Assembly: GCA_965217865.1 (NCBI GenBank)
Contig: CBDCJO010000002.1
Location: forward strand, 3,232,001 to 3,296,000
Reading direction: 5' to 3'
DNA length: 64,000 bases
From: Candidatus Latescibacterota bacterium
Lineage (GTDB): Bacteria; Latescibacterota; UBA2968; SICM01
Shown: in pieces, positions 5,210 through 63,412 of the stretch
How the letters are laid out: every line of letters starts with the position of its first letter
How positions within the stretch are numbered: position 1 is the stretch's first letter
Notes under the pieces: model-generated
What the model was told of the DNA's origin: nothing
The model's database searches: none
Seen by the model: only the letters and a program-made list of their open reading frames with translations
Position numbers and translations under genes: made by a program

Positions 5210-5483
5210 GTGATTGACGTAATTTCCAAACCCGCTGATCAAATTGGCTTGAGTGACATTGAGGCATTAATCACTTCACAAGTCCCGGAAGGCGAGCAGA
5301 TTGAATTCAAGGAGAGCTTGTCCGAAAAAGGTAAATCTTCCGATCCCTGGATGGAAGGTAAGGTTCGAATTGGTGACCGAGCGAGAAACAAGGTGCTTGA
5401 GGAGGCCGTTGCCTTCGCAAATTCTCATGGTGGCGCTCTGCTGATTGGTATCAAGGAGTCCGGTACGAAACCTCCTGTTGCTA
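5210..5483 (+). pseudogene. Schlafen/AlbA_2-domain protein, truncated
   Basis: EGEQIEFKE and AFANSHGGALLIGI motifs, then abrupt switch to unrelated sequence. Confidence 0.8.
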
Positions 5484-5560
5484 CCATCGCCGCGCGTTCC
5501 TCCCACGCCTCATCGCTGTTCTTTACGCTGGAACCGCTCTTGGGGGGTGTCACGGCTTGA
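5484..5560 (-). pseudogene. Short fragment of a primase-tail-like gene
   Basis: Reads DEAWEERAAM, resembling AFDERAGIMEHEGG at ~31640-31680. Confidence 0.4.
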
Positions 5561-5576
5561 AGATTCTGCTTTTGAC

Positions 5577-6551
5577 ATGATTCAAATCCACCGAAGATTT
5601 GTTCTGCAGCTTGAAGGATTTGTCATGGTTGCGGCAGGTCTGTCCTCCGCAGTGATGGCGCCGCTTGAATTCTCTCTCTTCAAGGATATCACGAAGGACC
5701 TTGTCGGATTCGGCTACCTTGGCTTTGCGGCGCATTCAGGCCAGATTTTTGGCTTTTATCTAGTTGCCCTTGTGCTTCTTCCACTTGGGTACGGTCATCT
5801 TCTTCTAAGATCCTGGGCACACAAGCTCAGCTTAACGGCCCTGTGGTCGTGGCTCATATTAGGTATTCCATGTATGGCATTCGTGATGTACATCTTTGTC
5901 GCTTACAAGAATCCCACAGATCTCACCACGCTATTTTTTGGTGTATCTACTCTATTCATTTATCCGGTTCTGCCTTTTGCCCTCGTTCTGTTCTATCGTA
6001 GTTCAGATACGCAAGCACAGTTTCATAGCAAAGACCATCTCACTTGGATTGAGACAGCGCCACAGCCGGTGCTAATCCTTGGCTCAGTCGTGACCTTTTA
6101 TGTCTTTGCTTTTCACTTACCCCTATTTCTGAACGGGGTTGTTCCGTTTGGATGTGTCTTTCTGTCAGGCCTCGGAGGCTACACGCTCGCAGCTACAGCA
6201 ATTCTGGGATTATCATTCGTTGCGTTGGGATTGTTCAATCAACGCCGTTGGGCATGGTTCGGTGGGATGGCATGTTTTACTACGATGGCAATGGACTTCC
6301 CCCTCGCGTTCTTGTGTTCTGGTTCGACAGAATTCCTCCGGCAACTTGGGGTATCGGATTTGGACGTGTCTTTGGTCGAGCTACAATTTCCAAGTGCACA
6401 GATCGCACTATTTCTAGCACTTCCAACAGTGAGCGCTCTGTTCACCTTATTGTTTAACCGTCGATATTTTGATCGGGTTGCGACAAAGGCGGAGCTTTGG
6501 ATGGGTCTGCTGGCCGTGGTGATTCTGATTCGCCTTTGGTCTAAAGTCTGA
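5577..6551 (+). CDS. Multi-pass membrane protein, integron cassette (5' end probably lost)
   Basis: Many hydrophobic segments; attC R'' box 16 bp after stop. Confidence 0.6.
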   Translation: MIQIHRRFVLQLEGFVMVAAGLSSAVMAPLEFSLFKDITKDLVGFGYLGFAAHSGQIFGFYLVALVLLPLGYGHLLLRSWAHKLSLTALWSWLILGIPCMAFVMYIFVAYKNPTDLTTLFFGVSTLFIYPVLPFALVLFYRSSDTQAQFHSKDHLTWIETAPQPVLILGSVVTFYVFAFHLPLFLNGVVPFGCVFLSGLGGYTLAATAILGLSFVALGLFNQRRWAWFGGMACFTTMAMDFPLAFLCSGSTEFLRQLGVSDLDVSLVELQFPSAQIALFLALPTVSALFTLLFNRRYFDRVATKAELWMGLLAVVILIRLWSKV

Positions 6552-6817
6552 TTTTAAGGATACTGTATATAACACCGAGTGCCCGCCTCCGCTTCGCTCC
6601 GGAGGAACCTGCTGCGCAGGTTCGGGCACTCTTGAACTACATGCGGAAAGTCAAGAGCAAAGTTGACGATTTCGAGGTTGGATGAGATTTTTTATGCCGG
6701 TTTTCTCAGCGTCAAGGGGTGTAAAGTGGACATTCTTACTATGTTCGGAGCGCAGTTCGCCCTTATGGTGCAGGACCGGTCTTTGAAGAGGGGCGAAGCT
6801 CCCGTGTGGGGGGTGGT

Positions 6818-6985
6818 GTCTTCCGATACCAACTTACATCCGCGGCCGGCACTCTTGTTTGTGTGAGTAGGTGTGCCGGTCTTCGCGCATTTTCTAATCC
6901 GATCCAGGAAGACGGGGAGGCCTGCGGATCTGTTAGCCGAAGCGACTCCTATCGGAGCCCTCCTCTCAAGCCAGTTCTGCAGGCC
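6818..6985 (-). ncRNA. Candidate bridge RNA of IS110 element A
   Basis: Two stem-closed internal loops (6919-6985, 6818-6913) containing short matches to target and donor junctions. Confidence 0.55.
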
Positions 6986-7095
6986 GCCCCTGGCCGCCTT
7001 GGAAGGCGGCAGCTTGTGTAACCGGTCCGGCAGGAGACTGCACCGGATGTGAATCGAGCAGCGATGTCAAAGAGCGAGTGTGACCGCGGCAGCGG

Positions 7096-8427
7096 TCAGG
7101 CGGCGGCGCGAGCGCGCCGTCGGGGATGCTGCTTTTTCTTGTAGCGCTTCATGTAGCGCCTCTCGAGCGTTTTGAGGGATGCCGCGGGGTGGTCTCTCTC
7201 CTCGTAGAGACGATTTTCTCTGAGCAGGGCTACGATGAGCCGTAGGAGCTGGGACGAGGCGGCCACGATATTCTTGCGGTAGCACTTCTTCCTGAGCTCG
7301 CGTTCGAGGAAGCGGCGGCGGACCTGGGGCACGACCCGGGCGGTCTGTTCGGTCATCTGGTAGATGATTCGCCGCAGCCGGGGATTGCCGATCTTGCTCA
7401 TCCGCCTTTTGCCTTTGTACTTTCCGGAGTCGGCGATGCGCACGTTCGTGCCGGCGAGCTTCTCGATCTGTTTGAAGTGGGTGAAGCGGGTGGCCCCTCG
7501 CGTCTCCGCGGTAAATTGGGCAGCCAGGTTTTTGTTGATGTTGGGGATCGAGTCGACGATTTGGAAAGTCGGATCCTGCTGAGTGCGGGCGATCATCGCC
7601 TGCTCCACAGCTTTGAGTTGCGTCTCGGTCCGCCGGAGCGCCTCGATCCAGCCATTCAGGATGATGCGGAGGACATCTTCCTGGCCCTCGACCGGGATCC
7701 CGATGGAGGTCCGGGCCTCCTCCTTCAGCTTCTGCAGCGTCGCCACCCCGTAACTGCCTCTTGAGATCCGATGGATCTGGCGGCCCTCCTCTTCGATGTC
7801 AATTTCCTCGAAGTGGCGGGGCAAGAAATATCGCTCCAACAGGTAGCGGGAGGTCTTCGTACGAATGTTGACCGCGTGGAGGAACTCCGGGAAGACGCGT
7901 TCCATCAGAGACCGGGTGCGGAGCAGGGACTTTGTGAGGTCCTTCCGGAGCTTGTCGTAGGCGATTGAGAGCTGGTGCGCGGCCTCCATGTGAGGCTCGA
8001 ACGTCCTGAAGAGATCATAGCTTCCCTTCTGTGCGCTGTCGGCCACCAGAAAGGCATCCCTGGGATCCGACTTGGAGAAATCGCGGTGCATCATCGGTCT
8101 TGCGTGATACGTCGTGAGGGGGCTCACCAGCAGCACGCGATACCCCTTCCCCTGGAGGTAGTGGGCCAGGGTAACCCACAGATTGCAGGACGTCTCGATG
8201 GCCACCACCATCCGATCCGGCCCGCAATCTTTGATGCGTCGCTCCAGATGCTGCCAGAGGGTATGGTCATATCCCGCTCGCGTCACGGGGAATGAGAAGG
8301 CCCCGCCTTGCTGAAGTCCGGAGGGATCGAGCACCGACCCGCTGTGTTTTTCCTTGCCCGGATCGATCCCGAGGACGAAATTCTGGGAGATGGCCTGTCG
8401 TTTAAGGTGGAAGATTTTCGACTTCAT
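7096..8427 (-). CDS. IS110-family DEDD recombinase
   Basis: GID, IETS, KSDPRDA, DSGK, GNPRLR motifs all present. Confidence 0.95.
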   Translation of the reverse strand: MKSKIFHLKRQAISQNFVLGIDPGKEKHSGSVLDPSGLQQGGAFSFPVTRAGYDHTLWQHLERRIKDCGPDRMVVAIETSCNLWVTLAHYLQGKGYRVLLVSPLTTYHARPMMHRDFSKSDPRDAFLVADSAQKGSYDLFRTFEPHMEAAHQLSIAYDKLRKDLTKSLLRTRSLMERVFPEFLHAVNIRTKTSRYLLERYFLPRHFEEIDIEEEGRQIHRISRGSYGVATLQKLKEEARTSIGIPVEGQEDVLRIILNGWIEALRRTETQLKAVEQAMIARTQQDPTFQIVDSIPNINKNLAAQFTAETRGATRFTHFKQIEKLAGTNVRIADSGKYKGKRRMSKIGNPRLRRIIYQMTEQTARVVPQVRRRFLERELRKKCYRKNIVAASSQLLRLIVALLRENRLYEERDHPAASLKTLERRYMKRYKKKQHPRRRARAAA

Positions 8428-8597
8428 CGTATACCTCCAGCGTTGAGGGTTGAGTTTGCTTGCGCTTGCCGAATCTTAAGACACCTTGCCTTGCAAGGGA
8501 AGATTCAGCCCCTCAACGCTGTTTTTTCCTCCTTTACTCAATATAGAAATCGTTATCCGGCATAGGGGTTCGAAGGGGAAATGATTTCGTTGTTGTA

Positions 8598-9002
8598 GTG
8601 GGCAAACATCCAGTATCGGAGCAACAGATGGATCCGAGGGTGGTCAGACATTACGAGACGGTCAAAGACGAGGCCACTCGCCTAGCCCAGGGAACTTGCC
8701 GAGTGGAGTTCGAAAGGACGAAAGAGGTTCTGCTGAGATACTTGCCGGGCCCTCCGGCTCAAATTCTCGACATCGGAGGTGGGCCAGGTGCTTATTCATT
8801 CTGGCTGGCGGAAAAATCGTACAAAGTCCATCTGATTGACATTGTGCCCCTCCACGTGGAGCAGGCCAAGAGCAGGGAAGGTGGGGCACTTCTTGCCAGC
8901 ATCGGCCAGGGAGACGCAAGTAGACTCGACTTCGAGTCTGACTCGATGGATGTGGTGCTGCTGCTCGGTCCACATCTTCTGACGATGGCCAAGAAGAAGT
9001 GA
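8598..9002 (+). pseudogene. Class I SAM methyltransferase cassette with large in-frame internal deletion
   Basis: LDIGGGPG motif; LLLGP joined directly to C-terminal HLLTMAKKK; cassette ends complementary (TAGGGGTTCG / CGAACCCCTA). Confidence 0.75.
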
Positions 9003-9071
9003 AGACTGGTGCTGCCTGGCTGCCCGCGTCTGACTAGACTGGAGACCCCGAACCCCTACGTCCGCCTAACA

Positions 9072-10703
9072 CATATTAAAGGCCCCGGGTCAAGAAAAAA
9101 AGACTCCTCCATCACGATTTTCACCGTTTTTTTGCGACCCTAACGTTCGGGGCGTGCAATGAGCCGATCCGAAGAGGTTTGGCGATGTTCGGATCTTTGT
9201 CAGTCGTCGGTCTGACTTGATTTTCACAAACCGGGCTAGATGTGAGCCATCTGCACCAAACACGTATCGGGAATCAAGCGCCTCTCACGGTATACTGTGG
9301 AGCGCCCTGGGAGAGGCATTGTCCTCTCCCTCCAGAAAATAATCGGTACCCCTTGAGTCCCAATCAAGAAGGATGGCTGTTCTCCCCTTTTATGAGGGGG
9401 AACGCCAGTTAGGTTCGGGTTCATCGCGGGGGCAGACGGACTGACTGTCTCAGATCCGCTCATCTATGTTCTAAATAAGGGGTGAAGGCGGCTTCCCAAT
9501 CAAGCCGATGAGCTGGGCTATTGTCCGGACGTTGCCCTGCCAGTTAGGCGCCGGGTTAACCGCCCCACCCATTATGCTACAAACCGTTTCTCGTCGAATG
9601 CCTGGCCGTTTTTGAGCATTTGGTAGGCGGCCACGCCGAATTTGTGAGCGATGACGCTCTTGGCTTTTCCCGGACCTTGTTTGCTTTTGAGCTTCTCGTA
9701 GTATCTATTGATCGGTTCTGACCATCGCTGGGCGACGAGGATGATTTCTGAGAAGGCCCACTTTAGGTGTGGGTTGCCGATTTTGTTATTCCCGTCCTTT
9801 GTCTTCTTTCCAGCGGACTCTCTCTCGACTTTGATCAGCCGGCTGTAGGAGGAGAAGGCTGAAGCGGATTTGAACCGTTCAATCGTGTGGATTTCATACA
9901 GGATGGTCATGGCCAACATCTCCCCAAGTCCGGGAACCGTCATCAGGATAGACAGGACATTGCGATCGTGATGTTTGGCCTGTGCCAAGACTTGCTTCTC
10001 GACTTTGTAGATCATTTTGTCCAGGGAGTCAACCAGGTCCAGATCGCAGTCCACAGACATACTCAGATCTGGGTCGGCCAGACGTTCGCACAGCTTTCTC
10101 CTGTTGCTCTTCTTTTTGACCTGGTCGCTGAGAGGATCCAGGATAGCTTGCTGAGAGAAGGTGTTCTGGATGTGGGTGTAACACTCAGCCCGTAAGGCCA
10201 CAAACCGGTGTCTTCGCCGGAGCAGGTCCCGGGTTGCCCGCATCTCTTGCGGATAGGCATAGGCCATCGGGAACAGGTTGCAGCGCATCAGCTCAGCCAG
10301 CATTCTGGAATCGAGACGGTCGTTCTTTTTCTTGCCCCCATGGATCGCCTTCATATACAGGGCGTGTCCCAGGTAGAATGGAATCCCGGCCTTGTGACAC
10401 CCGTCAGCCAGCCAGTACCAGTTGAAGGTTGACTCCACCCCGACGGCGATGCTACCGAGGTGAGTTTCCAGCACCTGCAGCAGGAGCTTGAAGTCGTTTT
10501 TCAGGTTGCGCTGGAACACAATCTCTCCCATCTTGTCCATGATGCAGACAAACATCGTTCTGGCGTGGAGATCGATGCCACAGAAATAGTTCGAGTCGAT
10601 CCTTGCGTATTGCATAAGGCCCTCCTGTGGGAGAAAGGTGATTGAGATATCCGGATCTCAATTATAACCTCTCCTGACAACGAGGGCCTTTATATTAATA
10701 TCA
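9072..10703 (-). mobile_element. IS110/IS1111-type element B with sub-terminal IRs and 500 bp 3' non-coding end
   Basis: TAAAGGCCC / GGGCCTTTA sub-terminal IRs; CA core at both junctions. Confidence 0.88.
9572..10615 (-). CDS. IS110/IS1111-family DEDD recombinase
   Basis: GIDLH, VEST, KNDRLDS, ESAG, GNPHLK motifs. Confidence 0.95.
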   Translation of the reverse strand: MQYARIDSNYFCGIDLHARTMFVCIMDKMGEIVFQRNLKNDFKLLLQVLETHLGSIAVGVESTFNWYWLADGCHKAGIPFYLGHALYMKAIHGGKKKNDRLDSRMLAELMRCNLFPMAYAYPQEMRATRDLLRRRHRFVALRAECYTHIQNTFSQQAILDPLSDQVKKKSNRRKLCERLADPDLSMSVDCDLDLVDSLDKMIYKVEKQVLAQAKHHDRNVLSILMTVPGLGEMLAMTILYEIHTIERFKSASAFSSYSRLIKVERESAGKKTKDGNNKIGNPHLKWAFSEIILVAQRWSEPINRYYEKLKSKQGPGKAKSVIAHKFGVAAYQMLKNGQAFDEKRFVA

Positions 10704-12331: not shown

Positions 12332-12412
12332 GGGTAGCATGTGGCTCACGGCTCCGCTGCGTTGCAGCTTCGGAGGATAAGACGCGGGTTCGTGAGCCAC
12401 TGAAGGTTATGA
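12332..12412 (+). other. attC site 4, degenerate shortened copy of attC5
   Basis: R'' mutated to GGGTAGC; 32 bp missing between CCGCTGCG repeats; R' GTTATGA. Confidence 0.85.
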
Positions 12413-12443
12413 GAAATGCGATTAAAAGCAGGAGATTGATCAT

Positions 12444-13210: not shown

Positions 13211-13323
13211 TCATAACATGTGGCTCACGGCTCCGCTGCGCTCCGCACCAACCCGCTTCCTCCCCCGCTGCGTTGCAGCTTCGGAGGATAAGACGCGGGT
13301 TCGTGAGCCACTGAACGTTATGT
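13211..13323 (+). other. attC site 5
   Basis: TCATAAC, GTGGCTCACG/CGTGAGCCAC stem, GTTATGT. Confidence 0.9.
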
Positions 13324-13403
13324 GTAATGCCAGCCCTGGTGAAGCATACATCGAACTATGAAAGATGATCCAGTCTCAGTGTGAATTGATCCGGAGGAGG
13401 TAG

Positions 13404-14423
13404 GTGGAACTCGACGAAGATCGTTTGAGGGCTATTCTTAGCGACACGCATTCATTCTATGGGTCAAAGCCTGCACAGTACCGAACCGATGAATGGGTTA
13501 GTCCGAATGCACGTGACCTGATAGTCGCCCAGTTTCGATCAGATTCGCGGGTTCTTGACATTGGGTGTGGAAATGGGGTCACACTTCTTGAGAACTGGGG
13601 AGCCTTTCGAACGGGCGTTGGGCTAGACAACGACGTTGTCGCAGGCAGAAAATTATCCAGAGACTTCGGGATGGATTCGAGAAGTAGTATTGTTCTAAAC
13701 GAAACGGCGATAAAAAGGTTGGGGTTTGAGTCACCGGCTGATGCTATCAATGAACCGTTTGAAGGATTTTATGATTCCGGATATGATGAGTTTAAGGGAG
13801 GGAAGATCGTGGGTGTGGTGAAAGATTTTCATTTCAAATCGATGCACTCCAGGATTGAACCTCTCGTTATCCACATCTGGCCCTGGCTTAATTACCTTCT
13901 GGTGAGAATTAACCCTGAAGAGATCTCAGGGACATTGGCCTTTCTGGAACGCAAATATGAAGAGCTCGATTCAAACCATCCATTCGAATTCTCCTTCCTG
14001 GACAATCGTTTTGACAAAATGTATCGGTCTGAAGAAAACCTCACGCATATCTTCGGTTCGTTTTCTATGCTGGCCATTCTCATAGCATCTCTCGGCTTGC
14101 TTGGTCTGGCGTCTTTGACCCTTGGCCAGCGGACCAAGGAAATTGGTATTAGAAAAGTCCTTGGAGCTTCAATTGCTAACATCGCCTTCCTGATTTCAAA
14201 GGATTTCTTAAAGCTGGTGCTCATTGCCAACTGTTTCGCGTGGCCGGTTGCATATTATGCAACGACTCATTGGCTGAGGAATTTTGCATATCGGATCGAT
14301 ATTGGACCGGCGGTTTTTGTGTTGGGCGGTATTATGGCATTCGTAGTCGCTCTAATATCGATCAGTGTTCAGACTCAAAGGGCAGCGTTCACCAATCCTG
14401 TAAATGCGCTGCGTTATGAATGA
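13404..14423 (+). pseudogene. Chimeric ORF: methyltransferase N-terminus fused in frame to MacB/FtsX-type ABC permease C-terminus
   Basis: VLDIGCGNG, junction ~13636, then RTKEIGIRKVLGAS and NPVNALRYE. Confidence 0.85.
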
Positions 14424-14424
14424 A

Positions 14425-14812
14425 CGTGGTGGTCTGAGAAGGATGAAGTGAAACAGTATGAGCGCCGGATTGCTGAGTTGGAGCGTATGCTGGGCCAGAA
14501 GGAGGTTGAACTGGCTCTGGCGAAAAATTGTTTGGACGGTCGCTGACGGTGGATGAGAAGGTGGATCTGGTAAAGAAAAATCGCTGTCGATTTGGTCTGA
14601 ACAGGTGCTTGATAGCTCTGGGGCTGTCGAAAGGCACCTGGCACCACCGCCAACGCCGAAGGGATGCCACAGGCAAGGATATGGCACTGAGGCGGCGGAT
14701 CACATCAATCATCAAGAGGAATCCTGGTTACGGACATCGACCGATCCTGGCCGAGTTAAACGAAGGAGGTAAAAACCGGGTTAACCACAAGCGTTTGCTG
14801 CGCGTTCTGGCT
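14425..14812 (+). mobile_element. IS3-family fragment
   Basis: orfA end (IAELERMLGQKEVE) and orfB start (PGYGHR, VNHKRL). Confidence 0.7.
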
Positions 14813-14907
14813 GACACGGCCACTTCTGCAACCCCTGACCGTTAAATGCAATCGTGGTCCCAGATACGATATGACAAAACTCTGGCGAAGTACGATTCGA
14901 ATAAAAA

Positions 14908-15390: not shown

Positions 15391-15417
15391 CACAGCACTC
15401 CCGAGCTTCGGCCCTAG
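15385..15417 (+). other. attC site 6, truncated by IS insertion
   Basis: ATTTAAC overlapping the stop codon, IS end at 15418 after CTAG. Confidence 0.7.
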
Positions 15418-15892
15418 CAGCCTGTTGAAAAAGTGCGTTTATGCCAAGATGACTGTTGTCTTTCCTTGTGGTTTGGTCCTATGATATATCAGGTTCAAAC
15501 TGAGAAGGGAGGACGAGCAAATGGCAATGGGAAAACGAGGACGACAGAGACAGGAAAACCTGTTCATCGCATCGAACACTTTGGTGAAATCTCCGGGTCA
15601 TCCGTTCTACGAGAAGCTGAATCAGGTATTGGGGGCGAACGGCTTCGACGAGTTCGTCGAGGGGCTTTGCCAGCGGTATTACGCTCCTCATATGGGTCGC
15701 AAGGGCATTCCGCCCGGGGTTTATTTTCGGATGCTTTTGATTGGGTATTTCGAGGGACTTGATTCGGAACGTGGGATCGAATGGCGTGTATCTGACTCGC
15801 TGACGTTGCGCCGGTTTTTGGGGTATGCCCTTGACGAACAGACCCCGGATCATTCCAGCCTGTCTCGCATCCGGCATCGGCTTCCCTTGGAA
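15418..15892 (+). mobile_element. IS1182/IS5-like element, 5' fragment
   Basis: Matches the 5' end of the full copies; IR CAGCCTGTTGAAAAAGT. Confidence 0.9.
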
Positions 15893-16945
15893 TTAACTGA
15901 GTTTGCGGACGTGTTTTAGCCGGGGTGGACGGACTTGTCCCTGTGATGTTACGACGACAGGTGCTGACATGGCAGTCAGGCCGGTTTGAGCCATCTGATT
16001 CTGTTCCAGGCCGGGAAGAAGTCAGTCATCCACCGGTTGTAGCCCAAGACACGATAGATGATCTGTCTTCCCCGGGTCACGATCTGGCAAGGGATCCAGA
16101 TCAGATTCTGGAGGAAGGCGCGAAACTCCATTCTCAGAAGTTGATCGCGACGCTCACGCTTTCGGATCATCAACGCGAACCAGGCTTTGAGGTTCCACGC
16201 CAGGGCGGTCATGACCATGTAAGCCCAGTTGCTCATCAGGTTGTCGACGGGCATCCGCATGGCGTTGACCCCGTTCTTGAGTTGTTCAATCACGTTTTCC
16301 TGATCGCACCGTCGATTGGCCAGCCTCACGATTTCCGCGGCCGCAAGATCTTTTCGGGTGGTAATGTAGAAGAAATAGCGCTTGTCATCGAACAGGGCGT
16401 TTTCGCCGCGTTCGACGCTCAGGTTCTTTTCGAGGATCACGAGTCGACAGGTCTTCTTGCATCGAGCAGGACGATACGAAACCCCGGCAACACGTTCACT
16501 GGCAAGCCGGATGTTTTTGAAGCCGCGCTCCCGGATGATCCGGGCTTTCACGTTCTCGCGTTTCTGTCTCTGGGAGGTCTTGACCTGGTATTTGGGTTGT
16601 CGTTCAAAGGGCTCCCAATCGCTCTGTGACAGGGATTTGGCGATCTTGACCAATCCCCGGTAAGCATCCATGCCGAAGACGAAGTCGACCTTTTCCGACC
16701 AACGATCGAAGTGCCGGGTGAGTGAGAAGCCGGTGTCTCCGCGCAGGCAGATGCGTTTGGCGAAAGGGGCGACCAGCGCGATGGCGCGATCGATCCACTT
16801 TACGGCACCGTCGTGGCTGGGCACATGGCCGGGTCGATTCACAAGAAACAACACCTCCCTGGTGTTCGCCAGAGAGACCACGAGAGGATGGTATCCCCAG
16901 ATACCGTTGTATGACAGGGCCATGCCCTGCTTGCGTCGCAACCGA
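15893..16945 (-). mobile_element. IS1380-family transposase, C-terminal half
   Basis: SYNGIWGYHPL, LRGD, RCDQENVIEQLK motifs. Confidence 0.85.
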
Positions 16946-21665: not shown

Positions 21666-21895
21666 TCGGCAACCGGCGAGCGTGTTCAAGTAGTGGTCAT
21701 TTCCTCCCCGGGGGAGGTCGATTACCTGGAGGTTGACTGATGTATAAGACGCACCGCCCGTGGGCCCCCACCGCGCCCGTATCCGTGGCCTCGTGGAGGG
21801 AGATGAAGACATTGTTGATCTTGTCCGGTTTAAGGTTGGAGTCGAAAACGCTCGCACCCGCCTCGACCAGCTTCGCATAGTCCACCATCCCCTAA

Positions 21896-23421: not shown

Positions 23422-23499
23422 CTAAAGGCCGCTTTTGTGTGTTCGAACTCCCTGGAGATCAGCCGGTTTCTCACCAAAGCCATATTTTCACTAGCCAGC

Positions 23500-24075: not shown

Positions 24076-24079
24076 TCTG

Positions 24080-25352: not shown

Positions 25353-25450
25353 GCTTGGAGGTTAACGTTCCCGTGCCGGTCTGTGGATGATAACTCCCCG
25401 CGCTGTGCGTGCTCACCCTCCCTGCTTCCGACAGGCCGTTATGCCTGACA

Positions 25451-41508: not shown

Positions 41509-41554
41509 AGTCTTTATTCGCCCCGCTGTCCCGATACGTTCCCACGCAGTCTAT

Positions 41555-46870: not shown

Positions 46871-47354
46871 TTCGATTTTCCTGAAATCCAGACCATCACG
46901 AGAACATGGATGCAGGCTAATGAACAGGGAATCTTTATGGCCGCTGTTGTGTTAGCCCTAATGCTTGCGAGCTTTATTACGATGGGCGGCCAATAAACTT
47001 CAGAATTTCCCTTCCGATTAGCAAGATCACTATGCCGCCTCCCAATTCTCCAGGTAACGCGATCAAAGCGGCACCCCCCATTATTACCCCCCCGTCGGAA
47101 CGTCCAGGCCGGGAGCTGGGGCCTGACGCGGTGGTATGCCAACCAAATCCAGAGCCTCATCGAGACGCGGTCGGCGCTCGAGTTCGAGAGTCCAAGAGGC
47201 GCTCCAGATCATCGAGCGGATCGAACAAGACACTTGGGGCGTGAAACTCGTCGAAGTCGACGGGAGGCGCTTCGCGATCCTGCCGGAGAGCACCCCGGAA
47301 AATCCGCTCTTGACCATGGACGGACGGCCTACCGTCAGGCTATCGAGCGAGTGA

Positions 47355-48219: not shown

Positions 48220-48328
48220 GGGAGATCGCCGAAGTATTGCGCGGGGTTTGAACGCAATCTGGAAGAGGCAGCAGCAGGCGCGGGAACGTCAGCGTGGGCC
48301 GGAGCGAGACTTTGGCCCCATCCGTTAG
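48220..48328 (+). pseudogene. Relaxase-like C-terminal tail
   Basis: QQARERQRGPERDFGPIR-stop pattern. Confidence 0.45.
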
Positions 48329-50963: not shown

Positions 50964-51001
50964 GTTTCACGCCGATCAGGGGCACATGGGGAGAATAAGT
51001 C

Positions 51002-51040
51002 ATGCAGCGTAAACGAGACAGCTTACTGCCCATCGAAGAT
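51002..51040 (+). pseudogene. repA start fragment
   Basis: MQRKRDSLLPI with the same upstream CATGG-GAGAATAA leader as 52762. Confidence 0.65.
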
Positions 51041-51076
51041 AGACCCTAAAAAACCCCGTTTGGAGCATTAAAATAA

Positions 51077-53553: not shown

Positions 53554-54291
53554 TCAATCGTGAACAACCTTATGAGCGACGACTATCATCTGACGACTAC
53601 CTCGACGGTAAGGTTCACGGTTCAGCGAACCATAGACGTTCTCCACCTTGAGACCCAGCGAAGAAAGCAGGTTTCGCATCTGTGACAACGTGTAGAGGCG
53701 TTGAGATGATCTGCTTTCGTACTCTGCAATGCCGTCAACCACACATTGCCCAATGAGACGCTCTTCACGAGGATCCCACTTCGATTGAGCAAGCACACCA
53801 TGCCTGACGCCTACAGGACGGAAATTCCGAAGTATCCGCTCGCGATTCAGTTGGTCGATCAGAAGTCGTCCTCCTAGACGCAATGCCCGGGAGAATCGCC
53901 TCACCACGTCAATATTCTCGCCGTCAGAGAAGTATCCAAAGCTGTTGAACCAGTTGTATATAGCGTGAAATTCGTTCTCAAAATCGATAGAACGCAAGTC
54001 CATGCTCCTGAGATCGGCTTGCACGCCCTTTCTTCTGAATCTCCGTTTGGCCCGCTTTACGAAGGTCGATCGCAGGTCAATGCCGACTACTTCTACCCCT
54101 TGCCTCGCCAGATGGTAAGCGACACGTCCCGCACCACAAGGAGCATCCAGGACACGTTGTCCACTTCGGATATGTAAGATCCGTCGGAGAGAATCTGCTT
54201 CATTCTCTCCTCCTTCATCCGGGCGAAGCCATAAGCTGTCATGTAGGGTGTTGAACCACTCACTCTTGTCGTATTTAGCCTGTTTATTCAT
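53554..54291 (-). CDS. Class I SAM methyltransferase, cassette-like
   Basis: VLDAPCGAGR, NSFGYFSD; AAACGTTATCT R' box just before ATG. Confidence 0.85.
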   Translation of the reverse strand: MNKQAKYDKSEWFNTLHDSLWLRPDEGGENEADSLRRILHIRSGQRVLDAPCGAGRVAYHLARQGVEVVGIDLRSTFVKRAKRRFRRKGVQADLRSMDLRSIDFENEFHAIYNWFNSFGYFSDGENIDVVRRFSRALRLGGRLLIDQLNRERILRNFRPVGVRHGVLAQSKWDPREERLIGQCVVDGIAEYESRSSQRLYTLSQMRNLLSSLGLKVENVYGSLNREPYRRGSRQMIVVAHKVVHD

Positions 54292-54864: not shown

Positions 54865-55160
54865 GGAGGTGTCTCCAGTGTTCTGTCGGAAAGTCGAAGA
54901 AGGTGAGCATTCGATCCCAGTCTCGATCAAGGGCTTTAACTGCCTTCGGGAACTGGCTTTGGTATCGTGCGATGAACTTCTTGCGGAGCTTCCCGGCATC
55001 TGTAAGGGTGTTGGCGTAGGGGATCTGAACGAGCAACGCCCGAGCCTGGACCTGTTGGCGCTTATGGATCTGGTTGACCACGTTGAGGACCTTGTGGTTC
55101 CAGCACCGCTGCTGCCGGGTCTGTGGCCAGACCTGATTGACCGCGGACCAAAGACGATGA
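54865..55160 (-). mobile_element. IS256 internal fragment, diverged paralog of the neighbouring element
   Basis: WSAVNQVWP.TRQQRCWNHK shared with 55373-56641. Confidence 0.85.
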
Positions 55161-55256
55161 CCACATGTGGGCGGCTGGAGACCATTATCGGTTTCCTGTA
55201 TCAGAGCCAACTCTGCAACCAAACAGACCAACCTTTAGCCGCTTAACAACAACGTC

Positions 55257-56733
55257 GTGTAACAACCGGTTGCCACTGCGGCGCGTGCACGGAGCTACAT
55301 TCGAAAGGTGTGGAAAAAGAGAGAAGGCGACCCTAAACTTCCCGTGAGATAGAAATATCCACAAGATGCCGGGTGATTGGCCCGGTGGGAAGGAGGATCG
55401 CCGTGAAGAAACATACGTCAGACACACCGTGTTTGTCCATCCCTACTTGGGAGACCCTGGAAGGGTGGATTCGAGATGAGATCGAGGTTCGCATCCAGTC
55501 GATTGCCGAGGAGGAAGTGACCCAGTTCCTGGGACGGGGGTGGTATGAGCGTAAAGGAACTGTCGATGCGGCCCCCGGTTATCGCAACGGCTACGGGAAG
55601 CTGCGCCGATTGTCGACCTCTTGTGGCACGATAAAGATCAAGCGGCCCCGTGTTCGTGGATTGAAGGAGCGCTTCGAGAGCCGGATCCTGCCCTTGTTCG
55701 CGCGTCGCACAAAAGAGGTGGGAGAACTGCTCCCAGAACTTTATCTGCACGGTCTGGCTCAAGGCGACTTCGAGCTGGCCTTGCGGGGTCTGCCCGGAGA
55801 TGGAGCGCCGCTGTCTTCATCGTCGATTGCCCGACTCCGCGGCCAATGGGAAACCGACTACCAGACCTGGCAGGAACGACGCCTGGATGATCGCGAGCTG
55901 GTCTACGCCTGGGCAGACGGCATCTATGTCAAAGCCGGCCTGGAGAAGGATAAGGCGTGCTTGCTGGTCATCATCGGCGCAATGAGCGATGGCCGCAAAG
56001 AGGTTCTCGCCCTGGTGTCCGGCTACCGAGAGTCCACCGAGTCCTGGCTGGAGGTCCTCAGAAACCTGCGCGATCGTGGCCTGAGCCCCCCTGTCCTCGT
56101 CGTCGCCGACGGCAATATGGGCATCTGGTCCGCAGTCAATCAGGTCTGGCCACACACCCGGCAGCAGCGGTGCTGGAACCACAAAATCCTCAACGTAGTC
56201 AACCAGATCCATAAACGCCAACAGGCCCAAGCCCGGGCGTTGCTCGTTCAGATCCCCTACGCCTACACCCTTCGGGATGCCGAGAAGATCCGCAGGCAGT
56301 TCATCGCACGATATCAAGACCCGTTCCCGAAGGCAGTCAAGACCCTTGATCGAGACTGGGATCGTATACTTACCCTCTTCGACTTCCCAAAACCACACTG
56401 GAGGCACCTGAGAACCACCAATGCCGTCGAAAGCCCGTTTGCCTCCGTCCGCCTCAGAACCAACGCGGCCAAGCGATACAAGAAGGTCGCTGCGGCAAGT
56501 GCTCTGATCTGGCGCACGCTGATGGTCGCTGAGAAACGCTTCCGACGACTTGATGCACCCCATCTGATGCCGGATGTCTACGCACAGCACCACCGTAAAA
56601 AAAAGATCACTATCGACTCGGGAGAGAAGCTGGCCGCCTGACCTTTTTACACACCTCTTGACGAGAGCTCCGTGCACGCCTTGGCCTTCGGCAACCCGCT
56701 ACGCGGGTTCGGCAACCGGGAAGACGATACGAC
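55257..56733 (+). other. Degenerate attC split by IS256
   Basis: GTGTAAC, CCGGTTGCC/GGCAACCGG stem, AACCCGCT/GCGGGTTC as in attC5; R' lacks TT. Confidence 0.65.
55292..56670 (+). mobile_element. IS256-family element, complete (transposase 55403-56641)
   Basis: GAGCT... imperfect IRs, 8 bp duplication CGTGCACG, WADG, VADG, RTTNAVES. Confidence 0.93.
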
Positions 56734-56774
56734 AGAACATTTAGTTCCTATTTTTACTTTTTGATTCTTTGTTT

Positions 56775-57465
56775 TCGAACTCCGGTATGTCGTCACTCGC
56801 GACCGCCCAGTCTTCGCCGACCGGCGGATCGTCGCGACGGTAACTCGGCCCCGGCGGAGTCCACCACGCTTTCTCATCTGAGGCGAAGGTTGGGCTTAAC
56901 TCGAACTCACCATCCTCGTTGTGCTTACGGGCCGGAGGCGGCAGTGTCGGGTCGATATCTCGGCCGAAGAACTGCCACGGCCCTGCATAGGTCACCGGCT
57001 GATCATCGAAGAAGTCTGTCATGTGGAAGTTGTCCGCGATCCTTGCGGCCAGTTCGCGAAGGGCTATCCACTGGTACTTCTTCCCGAAGCGTTCAGCCTT
57101 GTGCTCGCTGCTGTGATCGGTCTGATGTCCTACTTGGTGCTGATCAAATTTGGCGAATGCCCGCGGGGTCCAACCAAGAGAGAGCACACGTTCGAAAACC
57201 CAGCGCTGCCCTAGCTCTACGGGATACTCCGCTTCTAGGTCACGCCTTGGCTGGACCGAGGAGAGCGGATACTGGCTGAAGTCCCGGAGTTTGGGTTTGA
57301 TGACATACTTTCCGAAGTCGCCCCAGAAGATCGAGATAAACAACTTTCTATACGGCCAATCTACACCGTCGTGCTTGTCCCTGTCGTACGCACGCTCAAG
57401 CTGTTTCTTCGTACGCGGTTTCCCGGGTGGAGCGGAGCCGTGCCCGGGCCGCACCTTGAACGGAT
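56775..57465 (-). pseudogene. Internal fragment of a large Avs/STAND-like defence protein
   Basis: AERFGKKYQWIA, RDIDPT motifs. Confidence 0.55.
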
Positions 57466-57479
57466 TGAGCAGACCGGAC

Positions 57480-57950
57480 AGGCCGCCTCCATGACGGCGC
57501 GCGGCGCGTCGGTGCGTTCCGACGCCCAGTCGCGGAAGCTCGACCGGAACCCGTGAGGCACCGCCGGAATGCCGAGTTCCCACAGCAGCTTGGAAAGTGT
57601 TGCGTCTGACAGCGGTTTGCTATATCTTATACCGGAAGATACCAGACCGGTCTCCTCCTGGGCGAGAGTCCGCGCTACGCTCAGGACTTCCAGCGCCCGC
57701 CCGGACAGCGGCACCCGGTGGGGACGCTTCGCCTTCATGCGCTCGCCGGGGATGGTCCACTGGCGGGCTTCCAGGTCGATTTCGTCCCACCGGGCCAGGC
57801 GGACCTCGCCCGAACGGCACGCCGTCAGCACCAGGAACTCGAAGGCCAGCTTCGCGGCCAGAGAAGCTATCCGAAGCCTGCACCGCCTCTATTGCGCATG
57901 CAACCTCGCCGTGGGGAAGCGCCCGCTGGTGGCGCTTGATATCGCCTTCT
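57480..57950 (-). pseudogene. P4-like integrase catalytic fragment
   Basis: LTACRSGEV, RMKAKRPHRVPLS, HGFRSSFRDW; catalytic Tyr region missing. Confidence 0.9.
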
Positions 57951-59029
57951 CGGGATGCCGGCCACGCCTGCGCCCGGGCGCGCGCCGAAGTGATTATGAA
58001 TATTGAACCCAATAAGCTCAATGTCGGCGGTCAGGACTTCCGCGTCAAGTATAATCCATCGGCTCTGGGCGGCGCTTTTGTCTATAGCCCGAAGACGCGG
58101 TACCGGGGTGTCCAGCGCAATCTAATCTGGTGGGCGCCGGTTCCGAAGAGGGGAGGTACCGTTAAGGTCTATCCCTTGAATGGCCCGTCTCAGATGGTTA
58201 CGCCGGGCCTGGAATTTCCTATGCGGGCGGGTTTAACTAAAGCGCCCCAGGCGTACAAGGTTAATAAGTACATCTGGGGACGATAGTATAAAGGATACCC
58301 TTCGCGATATGAAGTGGATTGTAGGATTGATCGACGCGAGGGCATCAAAGCCGAACCGTCCAAAGACCTACTCCCCTCGAATTTCAAACTGAGACCCATA
58401 TTCGTCAGATCTGGTGGAGCAAAGGGAAGTTCAAGGAGGGAAGATGCCCCATCCCCACGGCAGTATCCGGTTTTCAAACCGTTCTTCCAGACCCCGTACA
58501 AGGTCGCTTTACCTCAATCGTGCCACCCGTCAGGTTCAGTTTTCGAGGCTTGCCATACCCATTGCGATAGCCAGAAATTAAATCGACTCCAGAATGCCGT
58601 TCGTAAGGACATCGACCCCAAAAGGCGGTTACCTTTTCCTCCTGCAATCTCCTTTGAATCTCACCGTGTATCCACTCTTTAAGCGCCTCCCAAGGCTCTC
58701 GATGGGGCGATCACCAAAGCATCCGTGGGGGTAGACAGGCCACCGGTTAAGCCCTGTGGACCGAAGGAAGCGGGGCACCTAGGTGCAGTGTGTTGACCGA
58801 CCGGCGGGGTGCCCCTTTGTCAGTCGTGGTGCCCCCTGCTAATACCCACAACAAAGACCGTCGCCCTGAAGACGCTGGATGTAATCGCGGTTGATGGGCG
58901 GAGTCCTTGAACGCGACCATATCCTGCACGGCGGAAAACGAGGTGAACTTCCACATACTTCTGCCACCGTCAAGAATCTACCCTGCTCGTCGCTGGGTCG
59001 TCGAATGTACCCACGCTTGGCACAACCCA

Positions 59030-59705
59030 GGGGGATGCGTCGCTTGAGGCATTGCCTGGTCAGTACGCTGAGCTCGATTTCGGCGATGTTGAGCCAGCTA
59101 TCGTGTTTCGGCGTGTAGCGTAGTTCAAGACACCCAACGCGCGTGCCTTCGAGGGTAGAAAGGCTTCGTAAAGCTGGCGGATCGATCCAGCCACTCGCGT
59201 TCTCCTTCTGTCAGACGAACAATGTACTTCTTCTTAGGCATACCGATGGCTCATTCACATGCGTAGTGCTGTAGCCGTCCCCACAACGATTCAATTTCTC
59301 GGCCCGTTGGCCGCATCAAGTATATAACTACGCTGCTTGAGGTGGACTACCCGGATGCGGAAGTCGTGGTCCTGGTCTGCGACAACCTCAGTACTCACAC
59401 CATCGCATCTCTCTACGAGGCCTTCCCACCCGAAAAGGCCCGTTCTCTAGCCAAACGCCTCGGATTGCGCTACACCCCCAAGCACGGCAGCTGGCTCAAT
59501 GTCGCCGAGATCGAACTGAGCGTCCTTGCCAGACAATGCCTGCACAGCCGCATTCCTGACCTGCAGACCCTCACCAACCAGGTGGAGGCCTGGAAATGTG
59601 ATCGAAACGAGAAACACAGAACCATTGATTGGCAGTTCAGGACCACCGACGCCCGCATCAAACTGAAGAAGCTCTATCCCAAGTTTTAGGTGTCAGGGTG
59701 TACTA
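59030..59705. mobile_element. Two divergent IS630 C-terminal fragments (59030-59175 minus; 59335-59705 plus)
   Basis: YTPKH.SWLN.AEIE in both. Confidence 0.85.
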
Positions 59706-59882
59706 GTTTGGGGTTGAAAAGCTTGTGGTAAACCTTCGCCTGATCAACGGAATGGACTGAAAGGGAGGGGATATGAGCATCAGGAAGAAGCCCGGAAGGA
59801 GTCTGCTCATACCACGGCCAAGTGCGATCGATCTGCCAAAACGAATGTTCGAACCGAAGATCAAAAGTGGAGAACCATCGGG

Positions 59883-60308
59883 ATGAAAAAGAAGGATTGG
59901 ATTCTATTAGCCCTTCTGGCCGCAAAGGACTACAGATTACAGCCGGTACAGTTACAGAAGAGCCTTTTTCTGTTGAGCGAATCCGGGCTTCTGGGGGGGC
60001 GCAGTTTCTACAAGTTCGAGCCGTATCACTATGGCCCGTTTTCGCATGAGGTATATAAAGAGGCCGACCGGATGGTCCTTGAGGGACTGATCGTCGTGTT
60101 GCCCGTACCGGGCGTGCGCTGGCGAGAATACTGGATCACAGAAGAGGGCAAGATAGCCGCAGAAAAAATCGCGACGAAACCGGAGCAGCCTTGGGAATAT
60201 TTGAAGCTGCTTGTCACGTGGATTCAGGATCTTTCGTTCCAGGATCTGATCAAAACGATCTACGCGCACTTCCCAGCCTACAAGGTCAACAGCGTTTTCG
60301 GAGAGTAA
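59883..60308 (+). CDS. YwgA/SocA(DUF4065)-like winged-helix protein
   Basis: LQKSLFLL, FEPYHYGPFS..VY, Y..TEEG. Confidence 0.75.
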   Translation: MKKKDWILLALLAAKDYRLQPVQLQKSLFLLSESGLLGGRSFYKFEPYHYGPFSHEVYKEADRMVLEGLIVVLPVPGVRWREYWITEEGKIAAEKIATKPEQPWEYLKLLVTWIQDLSFQDLIKTIYAHFPAYKVNSVFGE

Positions 60309-60310
60309 CA

Positions 60311-61090
60311 GTGACTCTGATCGTAGGGATCTTATGTAAAGACGGAGTGGTCGTGGGATCAGACGGAGCGGCGACACTCGGATCACTCGGTTCCCAGACG
60401 GCTCGTCAGCCAACGAAAAAGCTCTGCGGCGTCGGGAATCGAATCATCGTTGGCGTATCTGGCCCCGTTGGGATGTCTCAACTACTGGTTGATCAAGTTG
60501 AATCTCTCAATGGGACAAACAAGCTGTCCAAAACGCAGTGCAAGAGCGCTGCTGATGCCATGCGTACCATCAGCACTGAATTCAAGAAAGACATCATCCC
60601 AGCAGCGCAAACGGCGCAAAGTGTAGCCAATCTCGTCGGACATCAAAACGCAGCCACGAGTGCCTTATGTTCAAGTGTTGTGGCCTTGCCGGTCAAGGGA
60701 AAGCCCACACTTCTTCAGTTCGATTACCAAGGTGCCGGAGAAGCTGCGAGCGAGGATCTTCCCTTTCTTTCGGTCGGGAGCGAACAGAAGACGGCAGACC
60801 CATTCTTGGCGTTTATCAGAAGGCTATTCTGGGAGAAACGTTTGCCAAAATTGGCGGAAGGCGTCTTTGCAACCACTTGGACGCTAAAGCAGGCAATCCG
60901 AACGAGCACCGGCGGGGTTTCGGATCCTATCCAATTGATGGTGCTGGAAGCAGATAGGGTGAGGGATATCACATCTGAGTTGGATGACCACGAAGCGAAT
61001 GTTGAAGCCTTGGAAGATCATATCAGAGAATTCAGCACTGAATACAGCAAAGTAGAGCCTGATTCGATGCCCAAACCGCCTGAACCCTAA
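60311..61090 (+). CDS. Proteasome-beta-like Ntn hydrolase
   Basis: GTG start then TLIVGILCKDGVVVGSDG (Thr1, Asp17), TKKL, VGVSG, SVGS, GGVSDPI. Confidence 0.75.
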   Translation: MTLIVGILCKDGVVVGSDGAATLGSLGSQTARQPTKKLCGVGNRIIVGVSGPVGMSQLLVDQVESLNGTNKLSKTQCKSAADAMRTISTEFKKDIIPAAQTAQSVANLVGHQNAATSALCSSVVALPVKGKPTLLQFDYQGAGEAASEDLPFLSVGSEQKTADPFLAFIRRLFWEKRLPKLAEGVFATTWTLKQAIRTSTGGVSDPIQLMVLEADRVRDITSELDDHEANVEALEDHIREFSTEYSKVEPDSMPKPPEP

Positions 61091-61159
61091 GCAAACCGTA
61101 TAAAATGCAATGATGTAATTGTTTATACGCGGCATAGAAAAGGCGATTTTTTCGTATGA

Positions 61160-61600
61160 GGTCAGTCGAGTTCGCCACGCAGCCACCGGGCCAGCGCCTT
61201 CTTCGGAGAAGAGATCTCCCTCACAGACGTATAGTAGTAGTCTTCCCACCCCCATTCAGGGAGACCGGTGAAGAGCATGAGGTTCAGGGGATAGACTTCG
61301 GAGTCTGTACATCTTCTTAAATCGTCGCGGAAGAGGAAGGTCTTCCGAGTTCTACCATGACGCCTTCGTCGGGCGGGGTACCGTTCACGATCGCAAAAAT
61401 ACCGTCCGCCTCGACAACGTCCTTCAGGTCAGCCTGTCCCACCTTGTATGCCCATCCGGACGCGGTGAAGTCGATCTGATTGTTTCGCTCCCACACCTCC
61501 GCTCCCAGCGAACCGATCGCCTCTACAAAGGCGGGAAGCAGTCCTTGTCTCTGCTGCTGTGAAAACCCGTAGGGGTTTGCCAGGTAAACGCTCTTCTTCA
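61160..61600 (-). pseudogene. Nucleoside 2-deoxyribosyltransferase-like gene with small deletions
   Basis: VYLANPYGF, PDEGVMVELG, frameshift to TFLFRDD. Confidence 0.8.
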
Positions 61601-61844
61601 CGGTCGGACTCCTTTCTTGAACGGTCACGGATGGGCTACAGCATCCACGGATGAAGAGAACCGGAGGTCCCGTGAGTTTCACGCAACCGGTTCAGCGTCG
61701 TTCCTTGACGAAGCTGCGTTCGACGAGGCTTGGCTATTACCTTTGTGGTGATTGCCGTCAGTGCAGAAAGTGTTATAGACGAAAGGATGCTACGTGACAT
61801 GAATGGTGAGTCGATATGGCGTCCGTGCAAGAGCGAAGACCCGA

Positions 61845-62161
61845 GTAAACCACCCCGCCCAAAGGGCGGGGCATTAACCACTCCCACCCCCAAAATCTTC
61901 TGCTATCCGATGAAACAGCTTGCCCACATACGCTCGTTGGTCACCTCCCAGAACCCATTTCCGGTACTTCGGTGCCCATACCAGAGGATACTGGCTATCA
62001 TAGACTGCGTGACTGGTCCGTCGGAGTCCCATCGTATGCCTCCTGAGTCGATTTGTGTCTCAGTGGTCTGAACACGATAAGACATCCTTTTAGCTTGCCT
62101 TCGGCAAGCTAAACTTTTCCTCCCCTTCCAAAGGAAGGGGTATCCAAGTTCAAATACTTTC
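61845..62161 (-). mobile_element. Internally deleted copy of the IS200-type element
   Basis: Both ends retained; 288 bp (46538-46825 equivalent) missing between TTTGG repeats. Confidence 0.9.
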
Positions 62162-62473
62162 ATGAAGCCCCCAGTATCCACCTCGCAGAGATGTGGGCTG
62201 GAGATTCCGTGTCAATAAAAGCCACCGGATCCTAGGAACCACGTGTAATAAAGCACATGAACGCATTGCACAACCGTCCCCTGGTCTAGGGATAACGACG
62301 ATGGTTTCCGCCAAGCATTGATCGCAACCCTTCGCCGATCGCTTGATCAATCCTGATGACCGTCTACGGAACAGAAGGCTGTTCCGGTCTCCTCCATCAA
62401 TGCTCATGCTTTCTCCCAATCAGTCCTGTCGTTTTCTTGTGTCTGGGGAACATGAGAAAATGACGGAAACCCA

Positions 62474-62545
62474 ATGCAGAGCAAACGAGACGGCTTGGTT
62501 CCCATCGGTGAAGTCTTCGGCGGCCTGGACGGGCCAGTGATCGTG
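62474..62545 (+). pseudogene. repA start fragment
   Basis: MQSKRDGLVPIGEVFGGLDGPV. Confidence 0.7.
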
Positions 62546-62842
62546 CTTCCATCCGGGTTCTGCCGGACATGCTCCTTGGCCGTGACCGTGGGCTCCAGCG
62601 CGGCCTTCTGGATAACAACAAGGTTCGAGACTTTGAGATCCGCCTCGGTCTTTTTTATGGACTCCAAAAAATGACAAAATTGACCCGATTTCGCCGCCGC
62701 GCCAGCTCGGAGCCAGCGATAGAAAGTCCTTTCGCTGATTCCCGCCACCCGGCAGGCGTCTTTGTTCGAGAGGCCCCTTCCGAACACTTTCAGCGATCTC
62801 GGCCCCGAGCTCGGGTGTCAGCTTTGTTTTACGTCCCACCAT
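62545..62842 (-). pseudogene. HTH / terminase-small-subunit-like gene, frameshifted and truncated
   Basis: GRKTKLTPEL then DACRVAGISERTFYRWL in another frame. Confidence 0.65.
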
Positions 62843-63412
62843 CGTTCACCTTCGCTGCCTTGAGCCGCGCCTGTCTCGCGCGCGGGCGAGGGTTGCCTTG
62901 TTCCGCGAGCCAGTGGGCCGTCCGGCTCCGGGGCGCCACAGGCGCGCCTCGATACCGGGGTGAGTCAAAGGCGCTACGGCCAAACCTCGACCTAACGGCC
63001 TTTTAGAGGGAGGCCCAAGGGGCCAAACTCAGGGGGTCTCGGCGCGCGTCTTCCTTATCCCTGAGGACGTGTGGAGCGTAACCCATCCTTGCCGCCCTCC
63101 CTGCCAACCGATCCAGGAAGGAGTTCGCCGCCGTGAGCCGTACGCCTGGGGGCGCTTCCGGGTCTTCGGCAATGTCTGCAACGACTTCAAGCATCGCGCC
63201 CAGCCGGTCCCTAGCGAGGACCTTGTCCTTGCTTGACGACGTCTGGCGAAGCCAAATAAATAGTCTTGACAAAACGATCGCGAGTTGGTCTACGCCTGGG
63301 CAGATACCCCGTCAGGGCACAAAAACCTGTACAAAGAATCCCCCGCCAAGCACCTTCGTCCTATGTGTTCCAAGTGTTACAGCATGGCCGTTAATTCAAT
63401 GAGGATCAGAAA

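Follow-up and report, generated by a model that had tools for sequence, protein, structure and literature searches.

Near-blunt joins between fragments of genes and mobile elements in a Latescibacterota genome, and a possible role for Ku–LigD end joining

How do fragments of unrelated genes come to lie joined to one another in a bacterial chromosome? The question is raised by a 64,000-bp stretch of DNA (the window) from Candidatus Latescibacterota bacterium, which occupies positions 3,232,001–3,296,000 of contig C2 in a 6.43 Mb genome assembled into two contigs, C1 and C2, and 96% complete. Its RecA shares 87–88% identity with proteins assigned to Ca. Handelsmanbacteria and Ca. Latescibacteria. 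A first-pass annotation made from the letters alone described the window as a patchwork of gene fragments with microhomology-bounded deletions. It proposed that a larger region had been compacted by repeated deletion, possibly through microhomology-mediated end joining (MMEJ), with chimeric assembly or amplification as an alternative. Here, we confirm that the patchwork is real and part of a genome-wide pattern. Near-blunt end joining describes its joins better than microhomology-bounded deletion does, and we lean, by a modest preference, towards the view that they were made by the genome's own Ku–LigD end joining, with deletion and occasional capture of DNA.

Near-identical repeat copies elsewhere in the genome were used as references, so that breaks could be placed to the base. 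Repeats at 90% identity or more make up about 20% of contig C2 and are clustered in tracts. An internal break end was scored wherever the sequence in the window stops while at least two further copies in the genome run on. The window holds 37 such ends (a few small indels counted in), which ranks it sixth among 99 windows of 64 kb with a median of 3. Since 24 of the 99 hold at least 15 internal break ends, the window belongs to a more extensive group of such tracts. Many Pfam domains in it are partial: AlbA_2 covers positions 1–44 of 118, DDE_Tnp_1_4 162–414 of 435, ADP-ribosylglycohydrolase 1–136 of 287 and the MmeI methyltransferase 100–258, while FtsX is present as its C-terminus only and integrases as halves. 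Rfam and tRNA scans of the window gave no matches.

An artefact of chimeric assembly or amplification has some footing, as the assembly is of metagenome type with a contamination score of 9.3%. The region is, however, present in nine public runs, and the contigs of six of these were compared over 4,500–44,200, bridging being judged among the contig pieces listed (32 of about 2,650 per comparison). The joins at 5485, 13637, 14815 and 33640 are crossed with 0 differences, including by contigs from the runs of a second study (four samples); the source sample itself may be represented by X4 and X5. This bridging covers no join between two multi-copy elements and nothing beyond 44,200, but some junctions are found again in diverged copies inside the genome. 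The abrupt joins seen in the first-pass annotation therefore stand, and an artefact is hardly credible. Public-run contigs also carry empty-site alleles for two whole IS1182-like copies, so transposition of insertion sequences (IS) is still ongoing atop an older, shared patchwork. One run is labelled sponge metagenome but accounts for a share of 0.07.

The bases shared at the joins bear directly on how they were made. Genome-wide pairing of break ends gave 603 events after repeat copies of one event had been removed. A filter on element ends and spanning copies kept 274, and the removal of insertion ends and tandem cases left 215, of which 162 are non-colinear. Our headline set consists of the 95 joins between fragments in which at least one side is multi-copy; 55 of these are clean, and the other 40 have mismatches near the join and were excluded. 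Joins with a single reference on each side were kept out of this set, as that class retains chance pairs and paralog crossovers; when all 162 joins are counted, 11 of the 93 clean ones have overlaps of at least 5 bp. Overlaps of 0, 1, 2, 3–4 and at least 5 bp occur in 16, 18, 12, 6 and 3 of the 55 clean joins, respectively, where random breakpoints in the same references would give 30.6, 15.3, 6.0, 2.7 and 0.3. The median is 1 bp, with 34 joins at 0–1 bp, 46 at 0–2 bp and 52 at 0–4 bp. Blunt joins are fewer than chance (binomial p = 1e-4) and overlaps of 2–4 bp are about twice as frequent; the pull towards shared bases is real but small, modestly above chance. For seven fragment-to-fragment joins in the window, each side has a reference, and the overlaps are 2 bp (at 15891, 29142, 31405 and 56774), 0 bp (24078), 4 bp (38082) and 1 bp (55150).

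MMEJ works by annealing of resected ends through short repeats, with loss of the DNA in between. The shortage of blunt joins and the doubling of 2–4 bp overlaps favour such a route, as do the overlaps of 8 and 5 bp at the two deletions cited in the first-pass annotation. Nevertheless, the spectrum lies mostly at 0–2 bp, only modestly above chance, and long repeats are concentrated in deletions shorter than 100 bp. Furthermore, the primase-polymerase family AEP-TOTE (PF22548), which we chose as a proxy for the IS-excision enhancer (IEE), an enzyme that needs at least 4 bp in vitro, is unmatched in this 96% complete genome. Microhomology is thus no general rule of the patchwork, and MMEJ as the main route is largely refuted; we regard it as improbable. 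Of the original proposal, break repair survives as the likely process behind the joins, and repeated deletion is also supported.

Deletion itself is certain. Twenty-five deletions could be polarised by at least two intact copies: the 11 of at least 100 bp have overlaps of 0, 0, 0, 1, 1, 1, 1, 2, 3, 3 and 5 bp (median 1), and none has a repeat of 7 bp or more, whereas repeats of 7–11 bp occur in 5 of the 14 shorter ones. The two deletions cited earlier were both confirmed by sequence comparison, but they are atypical and do not serve as representative controls. At the 8-bp repeat CCGCTGCG, 32 bp present in attC5 are missing from the integron site attC4, which is the deleted form because this extra module occurs in related attC sites. 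These sites are modular, with the same arms with or without an inner hairpin module of 30–90 bp (window 12335–13330; C2:1605293, 4208844 and 4232137). The attC4 deletion belongs to the short class and would most simply reflect slippage, in which a short deletion keeps one repeat copy; this pattern is seen in attC4 and in 5 of the 14 deletions below 100 bp and defines a minor class only. The second cited deletion removed 288 bp from an IS200 copy at TTTGG (5 bp). Its junction is also found at C1:577676 and C2:3762166 and in the duplicated block described below; its presence at two independent loci besides that block means that it formed once and then spread. We take the derivative to belong to the non-autonomous IS200/IS605 derivatives and the attC4 deletion to be short-repeat slippage; these known processes would explain the two cited deletions but just a minority of the joins. 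As also noticed earlier, a methyltransferase cassette keeps its ends and has lost its middle: 432 bp are absent in frame relative to two orthologs (91% and 87% DNA identity), with an overlap of about 3 bp (CAC) judged from the 91% identical ortholog.

The positions of the breaks speak to the part played by transposases. In a genome overloaded with IS, transposase-driven adjacent deletions and nested insertions could chop up neighbouring genes, and the repeated fifth of contig C2, the 95 DUF772 matches and the IS1182-like copies that are still polymorphic are all in keeping with this. Yet of 445 unique break ends with at least three supporting copies, 357 abut no recognised element end, and the others comprise 42 internal deletions, 21 small indels, 12 nested insertions and 13 ends that abut the end of another element without resuming. 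Only these 13 show the exact IS end expected on one side of an IS-mediated adjacent deletion, a lower bound because ends were recognised only for elements with at least three copies and low-copy ends were missed. Two relatives, G108 and G013, are IS-rich and yet keep mostly whole copies. Adjacent deletions made by transposases are minor, and as an account of the patchwork they are very improbable. Within elements, the breaks are scattered: internal ends are distinct in 16 of 16 cases for the IS1182-like element and in 28 of 29 for the IS1380-like element, and both fit a uniform distribution (Kolmogorov–Smirnov p = 0.55 and 0.82, respectively).

Repeated deletion, as first proposed, and genomic decay are real, but pure compaction is an incomplete account. 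The two references of a join lie more than 50 kb apart in 64 of 98 low-copy joins, and the source-traceable pieces are 94–100% copies of the genome's own sequence. The single accD gene is represented by three pieces (231–421 bp, 98.8–99.3%) in distant tracts. A 59-bp shard at C2:438920–438978 is 100% identical to part of a methyltransferase gene in the window and lies between unrelated neighbours with overlaps of 1 and 5 bp; other shards of single genes with intact sources measure 96, 56 and 444 bp. Pieces of a permease and an IS3-like element are flanked by integron cassette material whose two halves share one orientation. A further copy is a 7.7-kb block, from position 56774 to 64505 in window coordinates, so that its first 7.2 kb form the end of the window; it is 99.86% identical to the block at the boundary of C1 and C2, and each of its ends shows a 2-bp overlap and lacks an IS end. 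Since some pieces copy sequence that is intact elsewhere, compaction alone is insufficient. Three candidates for captured DNA were set aside: the best, a 152-bp insert at C2:3568774, is an artefact produced by a nested IS within the copies used as reference, and inserts of 214 and 775 bp, which have target duplications, resemble small mobile elements. The end of C1 and the start of C2 overlap by 6.3 kb inside the duplicated block, and the duplication probably caused the assembly break between them. A proteasome beta-subunit-like frame (60191–61090, plus strand) also lies within the block.

Ku and LigD, which the first-pass annotation had named as worth looking for, are both present. Their genes are adjacent and unbroken and encode a Ku of 285 aa (NCBIfam TIGR02772, 270 bits against a cut-off of 150) and a three-domain LigD of 774 aa (TIGR02776, 488 against 373), with the polymerase, phosphoesterase and ligase domains all over cut-off. 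Among the recombination genes, also recommended for checking, no recB scored over cut-off in this genome, and with AddAB of four relatives as queries the AddA-like proteins retrieved only UvrD-level paralogs and the AddB-like proteins no match. In the mechanism that we favour, double-strand breaks would start the process, with the many transposases, restriction enzymes and past self-targeting by CRISPR as candidate sources. Ku–LigD would reseal the ends after DNA loss, and a copy of DNA from elsewhere may now and then be patched in. Lacking AddAB or RecBCD, the cell would spare DNA ends and loose fragments, and scars would accumulate in dispensable tracts because they are purged elsewhere. Slippage at repeats of 7–11 bp would act as a minor second process and explain short deletions such as that of attC4. 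This proposal draws on the genomic joins and their overlap spectrum, the scattered breakpoints, the intact ku–ligD pair, the negative AddAB and RecB searches and the duplicated shards with an intact source. A type I-E-like CRISPR array outside the window (C2:140200–141020) carries two adjacent spacers that match C2:3321102 and C2:5507872 exactly. CRISPR self-targeting as a current source of breaks was nevertheless rejected, since the cas3 gene beside this array is truncated and fragments make up six of the seven cas1 matches.

Laboratory systems offer close parallels. In Streptomyces ambofaciens, Ku/LigD-dependent scars are reported to show 1–6 nt of microhomology in 50% and added bases in 40%, and to include captured endogenous pieces of 30–83 bp; the breaks were induced, and Ku dependence was shown by mutants (PMC5869714). 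The tracts share with these scars the short-overlap deletions (0–6 nt there), the presence of Ku and LigD, the damage in dispensable regions and small copied pieces comparable with the 30–83 bp patches. Unlike them, the scars here are natural, number in the hundreds and rarely carry additions (5 of 66), and we infer the enzyme. Ku–LigD non-homologous end joining (NHEJ) in Sinorhizobium meliloti is reported to capture heterologous DNA from a laboratory cassette in a chromosomal break without homology (PMC6379672). Homology-free insertion would be common to the two cases, although the traceable pieces here come from the genome's own sequence. Symbiont pseudogenes are reported to undergo deletion-biased decay by small indels that is ascribed to alternative end joining (PMC6054270); there too an IS-rich genome loses DNA by recombination-independent deletion, but here the pieces that have become fused are unrelated, their overlaps are close to blunt and the decay keeps to tracts. 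The IEE of E. coli O157 acts beside IS ends with the 4-bp requirement given above and links end joining to IS activity and deletions (PMC9943667), whereas here few breaks lie at IS ends and the AEP-TOTE search was negative. The tracts would appear to work like laboratory NHEJ scarring, of which they may be a natural example.

Relatives were compared on IS-centred samples of about 400 kb, in internal breaks per 10 kb of multi-copy DNA; the samples are small and IS age was uncontrolled, so the densities are approximate. They are 1.9 (G011), 1.7 (G013), 3.6 (G029) and 0.3 (G039) in Ku-positive genomes, 0.6 (G108) and 1.0 (G018) in Ku-negative ones, and 1.2–7.8 over seven samples of this genome. 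The six genomes include no Ku-negative one without an AddA match. The comparison neither supports nor refutes a link to Ku, and it shows that Ku is not sufficient; Ku alone as the explanation is unsupported by the six samples. AddA-like genes occur in 46 of 105 genomes of the class, this one not among them, and Ku in 18 of the 105. The AddA-like gene is patchy by genus (for example, 20 of 21 genomes in g4, 1 of 26 in g10), as is Ku, and several genera show neither with the queries used. G029 (samples L219–L238), Ku-positive and without an AddA match, has the highest density of the six and may hold similar tracts.

Several observations weigh against Ku–LigD as the presumed maker of these joins. 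One-base gaps, which would mark the untemplated additions that are a hallmark of LigD, occur in 5 of 66 high-identity joins, and of these one is probably a coincidental pairing, three are possibly substitutions and one is unambiguous. Among 57 candidates, no clean fragment insert was found in a contiguous multi-copy element. Core-gene shards are few: a screen of 2,016 core frames yielded about four plausible ones. Any of the shards could be what erosion has left of a larger duplication. The breakpoints of IS110a are non-uniform (p = 0.006), recA, recO and mutS are intact, and the lowest break density of the six relatives belongs to a Ku-positive genome without an AddA match.

Much of this would suit illegitimate recombination independent of Ku, in which template switching or topoisomerase errors join DNA at 0–4 bp while duplicates arising by IS activity or homologous recombination are eroded from both sides. 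The overlap spectrum agrees with it too, as do the low number of added bases, the lack of clean inserts and the internal breaks of the Ku-negative relatives. The accD gene adjoins an IS, and a colinear template exists for the join at 15891: its IS1182-like and IS1380-like elements lie 1,183 bp apart at one other locus, so plain deletion can explain it. This account would, however, leave an intact Ku–LigD pair unused and need a separate route for the 7.7-kb block, the 59-bp shard and other duplicates free of IS ends. We consider it rather unlikely, though worth serious weight, and retain Ku–LigD joining as the preferred reading.

A bolder form of the Ku–LigD reading is conceivable, and we put it forward tentatively and with more doubt than belief. 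Without AddAB or RecBCD, surviving ends and loose DNA might be ligated near-randomly, and a quarter of the chromosome might be a bacterial parallel to chromothripsis, a zone of shattered and restitched DNA. Mobile elements, defence genes and even essential genes would then supply pieces to be copied in and fused, yielding in-frame chimeras such as the methyltransferase–permease fusion in Table 1.

Mutagenic joining and capture by bacterial Ku–LigD have been shown in laboratory assays, and the case for a role in natural genomes has relied mostly on the presence of the genes. In this genome, IS copies that are nearly identical serve as internal references, which allows hundreds of natural breaks to be located at base resolution and the joins to be scored, an approach that provides a portable assay for genomes with or without ku–ligD and AddAB. 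If the link to Ku holds, the tracts show a way in which defence islands, integron arrays and CRISPR loci come to be destroyed and reshuffled, and in which chimeric genes form in the absence of homology; should it fail, the window is an unusually well-measured case of genome decay in an era of IS expansion. The ingredients are known, and our full-text literature search, from which subscription journals were mostly absent, returned no account of natural tracts scored for join overlap and no base-resolved natural record at this scale.

Table 1. Features of the window and the evidence for each. The family names IS1182, IS1380, IS256 and IS3 are presumptive and reflect our reading of Pfam domains.
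Feature	Position	Strand	Evidence
AlbA_2 (Schlafen) 5' fragment	5210..5485	+	Pfam 1–44/118; DNA homologs in three relatives stop at 5485
Join at end of AlbA_2 fragment	5485		Bridged by X9 contig 4912–5733, 0 differences
Intact IS110-family element at attC-like site	6636..8555	-	Pfam; 7 full copies; flanks
Methyltransferase cassette, in-frame 432-bp internal deletion at about 8970–8973, about 3 bp overlap	8628..9002	+	Orthologs in G036 and G117
Second intact IS110-family element at attC-like site	9067..10703	-	Pfam; flanks; full copies
attC4, 32-bp deletion at 8-bp direct repeat (slippage class)	12335..12419	+	
attC5, longer form	13214..13330	+	
In-frame chimera of methyltransferase N-part and FtsX-type ABC permease C-terminal part, fused at about 13637	13404..14423	+	96% identity to 271-aa methyltransferase over aa 1–77 only; Pfam FtsX; join bridged by X4, X6 and X7 contigs
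IS3-like internal piece and 3' half of attC site (14815–14852)	14424..14852	+	Pfam HTH_21; attC family comparison; join at 14815 bridged by X6 and X9 contigs
5' 480 bp of IS1182-like element	15411..15892	+	92 copies continue differently
Internal piece of IS1380-like element, 2-bp overlap with IS1182-like piece	15891..16936	-	37 and 30 copies continue at ends
Intact IS1182-like element, younger than patchwork	21892..23422	-	Empty-site allele in X4 and X6
Blunt join (0 bp, 24078/24079) of DUF4932 fragment and integrase N-terminal fragment	23623..24516		Pfam
Internal piece of IS3-like (rve) element	25025..25356	+	Pfam; copy comparison
46-bp IS end joined (2 bp) to MmeI-type methyltransferase fragment	29097..29652		
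M24 peptidase piece joined (2 bp, 31405) to multi-copy fragment	30374..31944		
ADP-ribosylglycohydrolase N-terminal half	33129..33644	-	Pfam 1–136/287; region bridged by X5, X6 and X8 contigs
Truncated IS256-family element joined (4 bp, 38079–38082) to WD40-repeat gene fragment	36814..39606		
Intact IS1182-like element, polymorphic	41551..43080	-	Empty-site allele in X5–X8
CRISPR array, 10 repeats, no cas gene recognised beside it	43636..44255		
193-bp internal shard of IS1380-like element, both ends internal	44476..44668		26 and 30 copies continue
Full IS200 copy	46261..46871	+	
BsuBI/PstI-type restriction-modification fusion and PARIS AriAB, apparently whole	48294..52687	+	Near full-length profile matches
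59 bp within whole methyltransferase gene (53554–54387), identical shard elsewhere	53881..53939	-	
IS256 fragment meeting another piece (1 bp, 55150), followed by whole IS256 copy	54867..56670		8-bp target duplication of whole copy, ordinary transposition
Part of 7.7-kb duplicated block (to 64505)	56774..64000		Cuts Avs2-like frame and HsdR-like gene
IS200 derivative without 288 bp at TTTGG	61843..62166	-	Same junction at other loci

Both IS110-family elements of Table 1 lie at attC-like sites (6569–6636 and 10699–10775), as do other genomic copies, and they resemble the attC-targeting IS110/IS1111 group. Whole-looking defence genes stand amid the debris, namely a Type ISP restriction-modification enzyme (177–5066), the BsuBI/PstI-type fusion (48294–50963) and PARIS AriAB (51077–52687). 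A 972-aa frame on the minus strand (25451–28369) has no Pfam or NCBIfam match, a partial PADLOC match to Dsr1 and DNA homologs at 63–67% in many members of the class. A HAD hydrolase cassette (10780–11531) is split by a frameshift near 11175, and its homolog in G028 spans the site.

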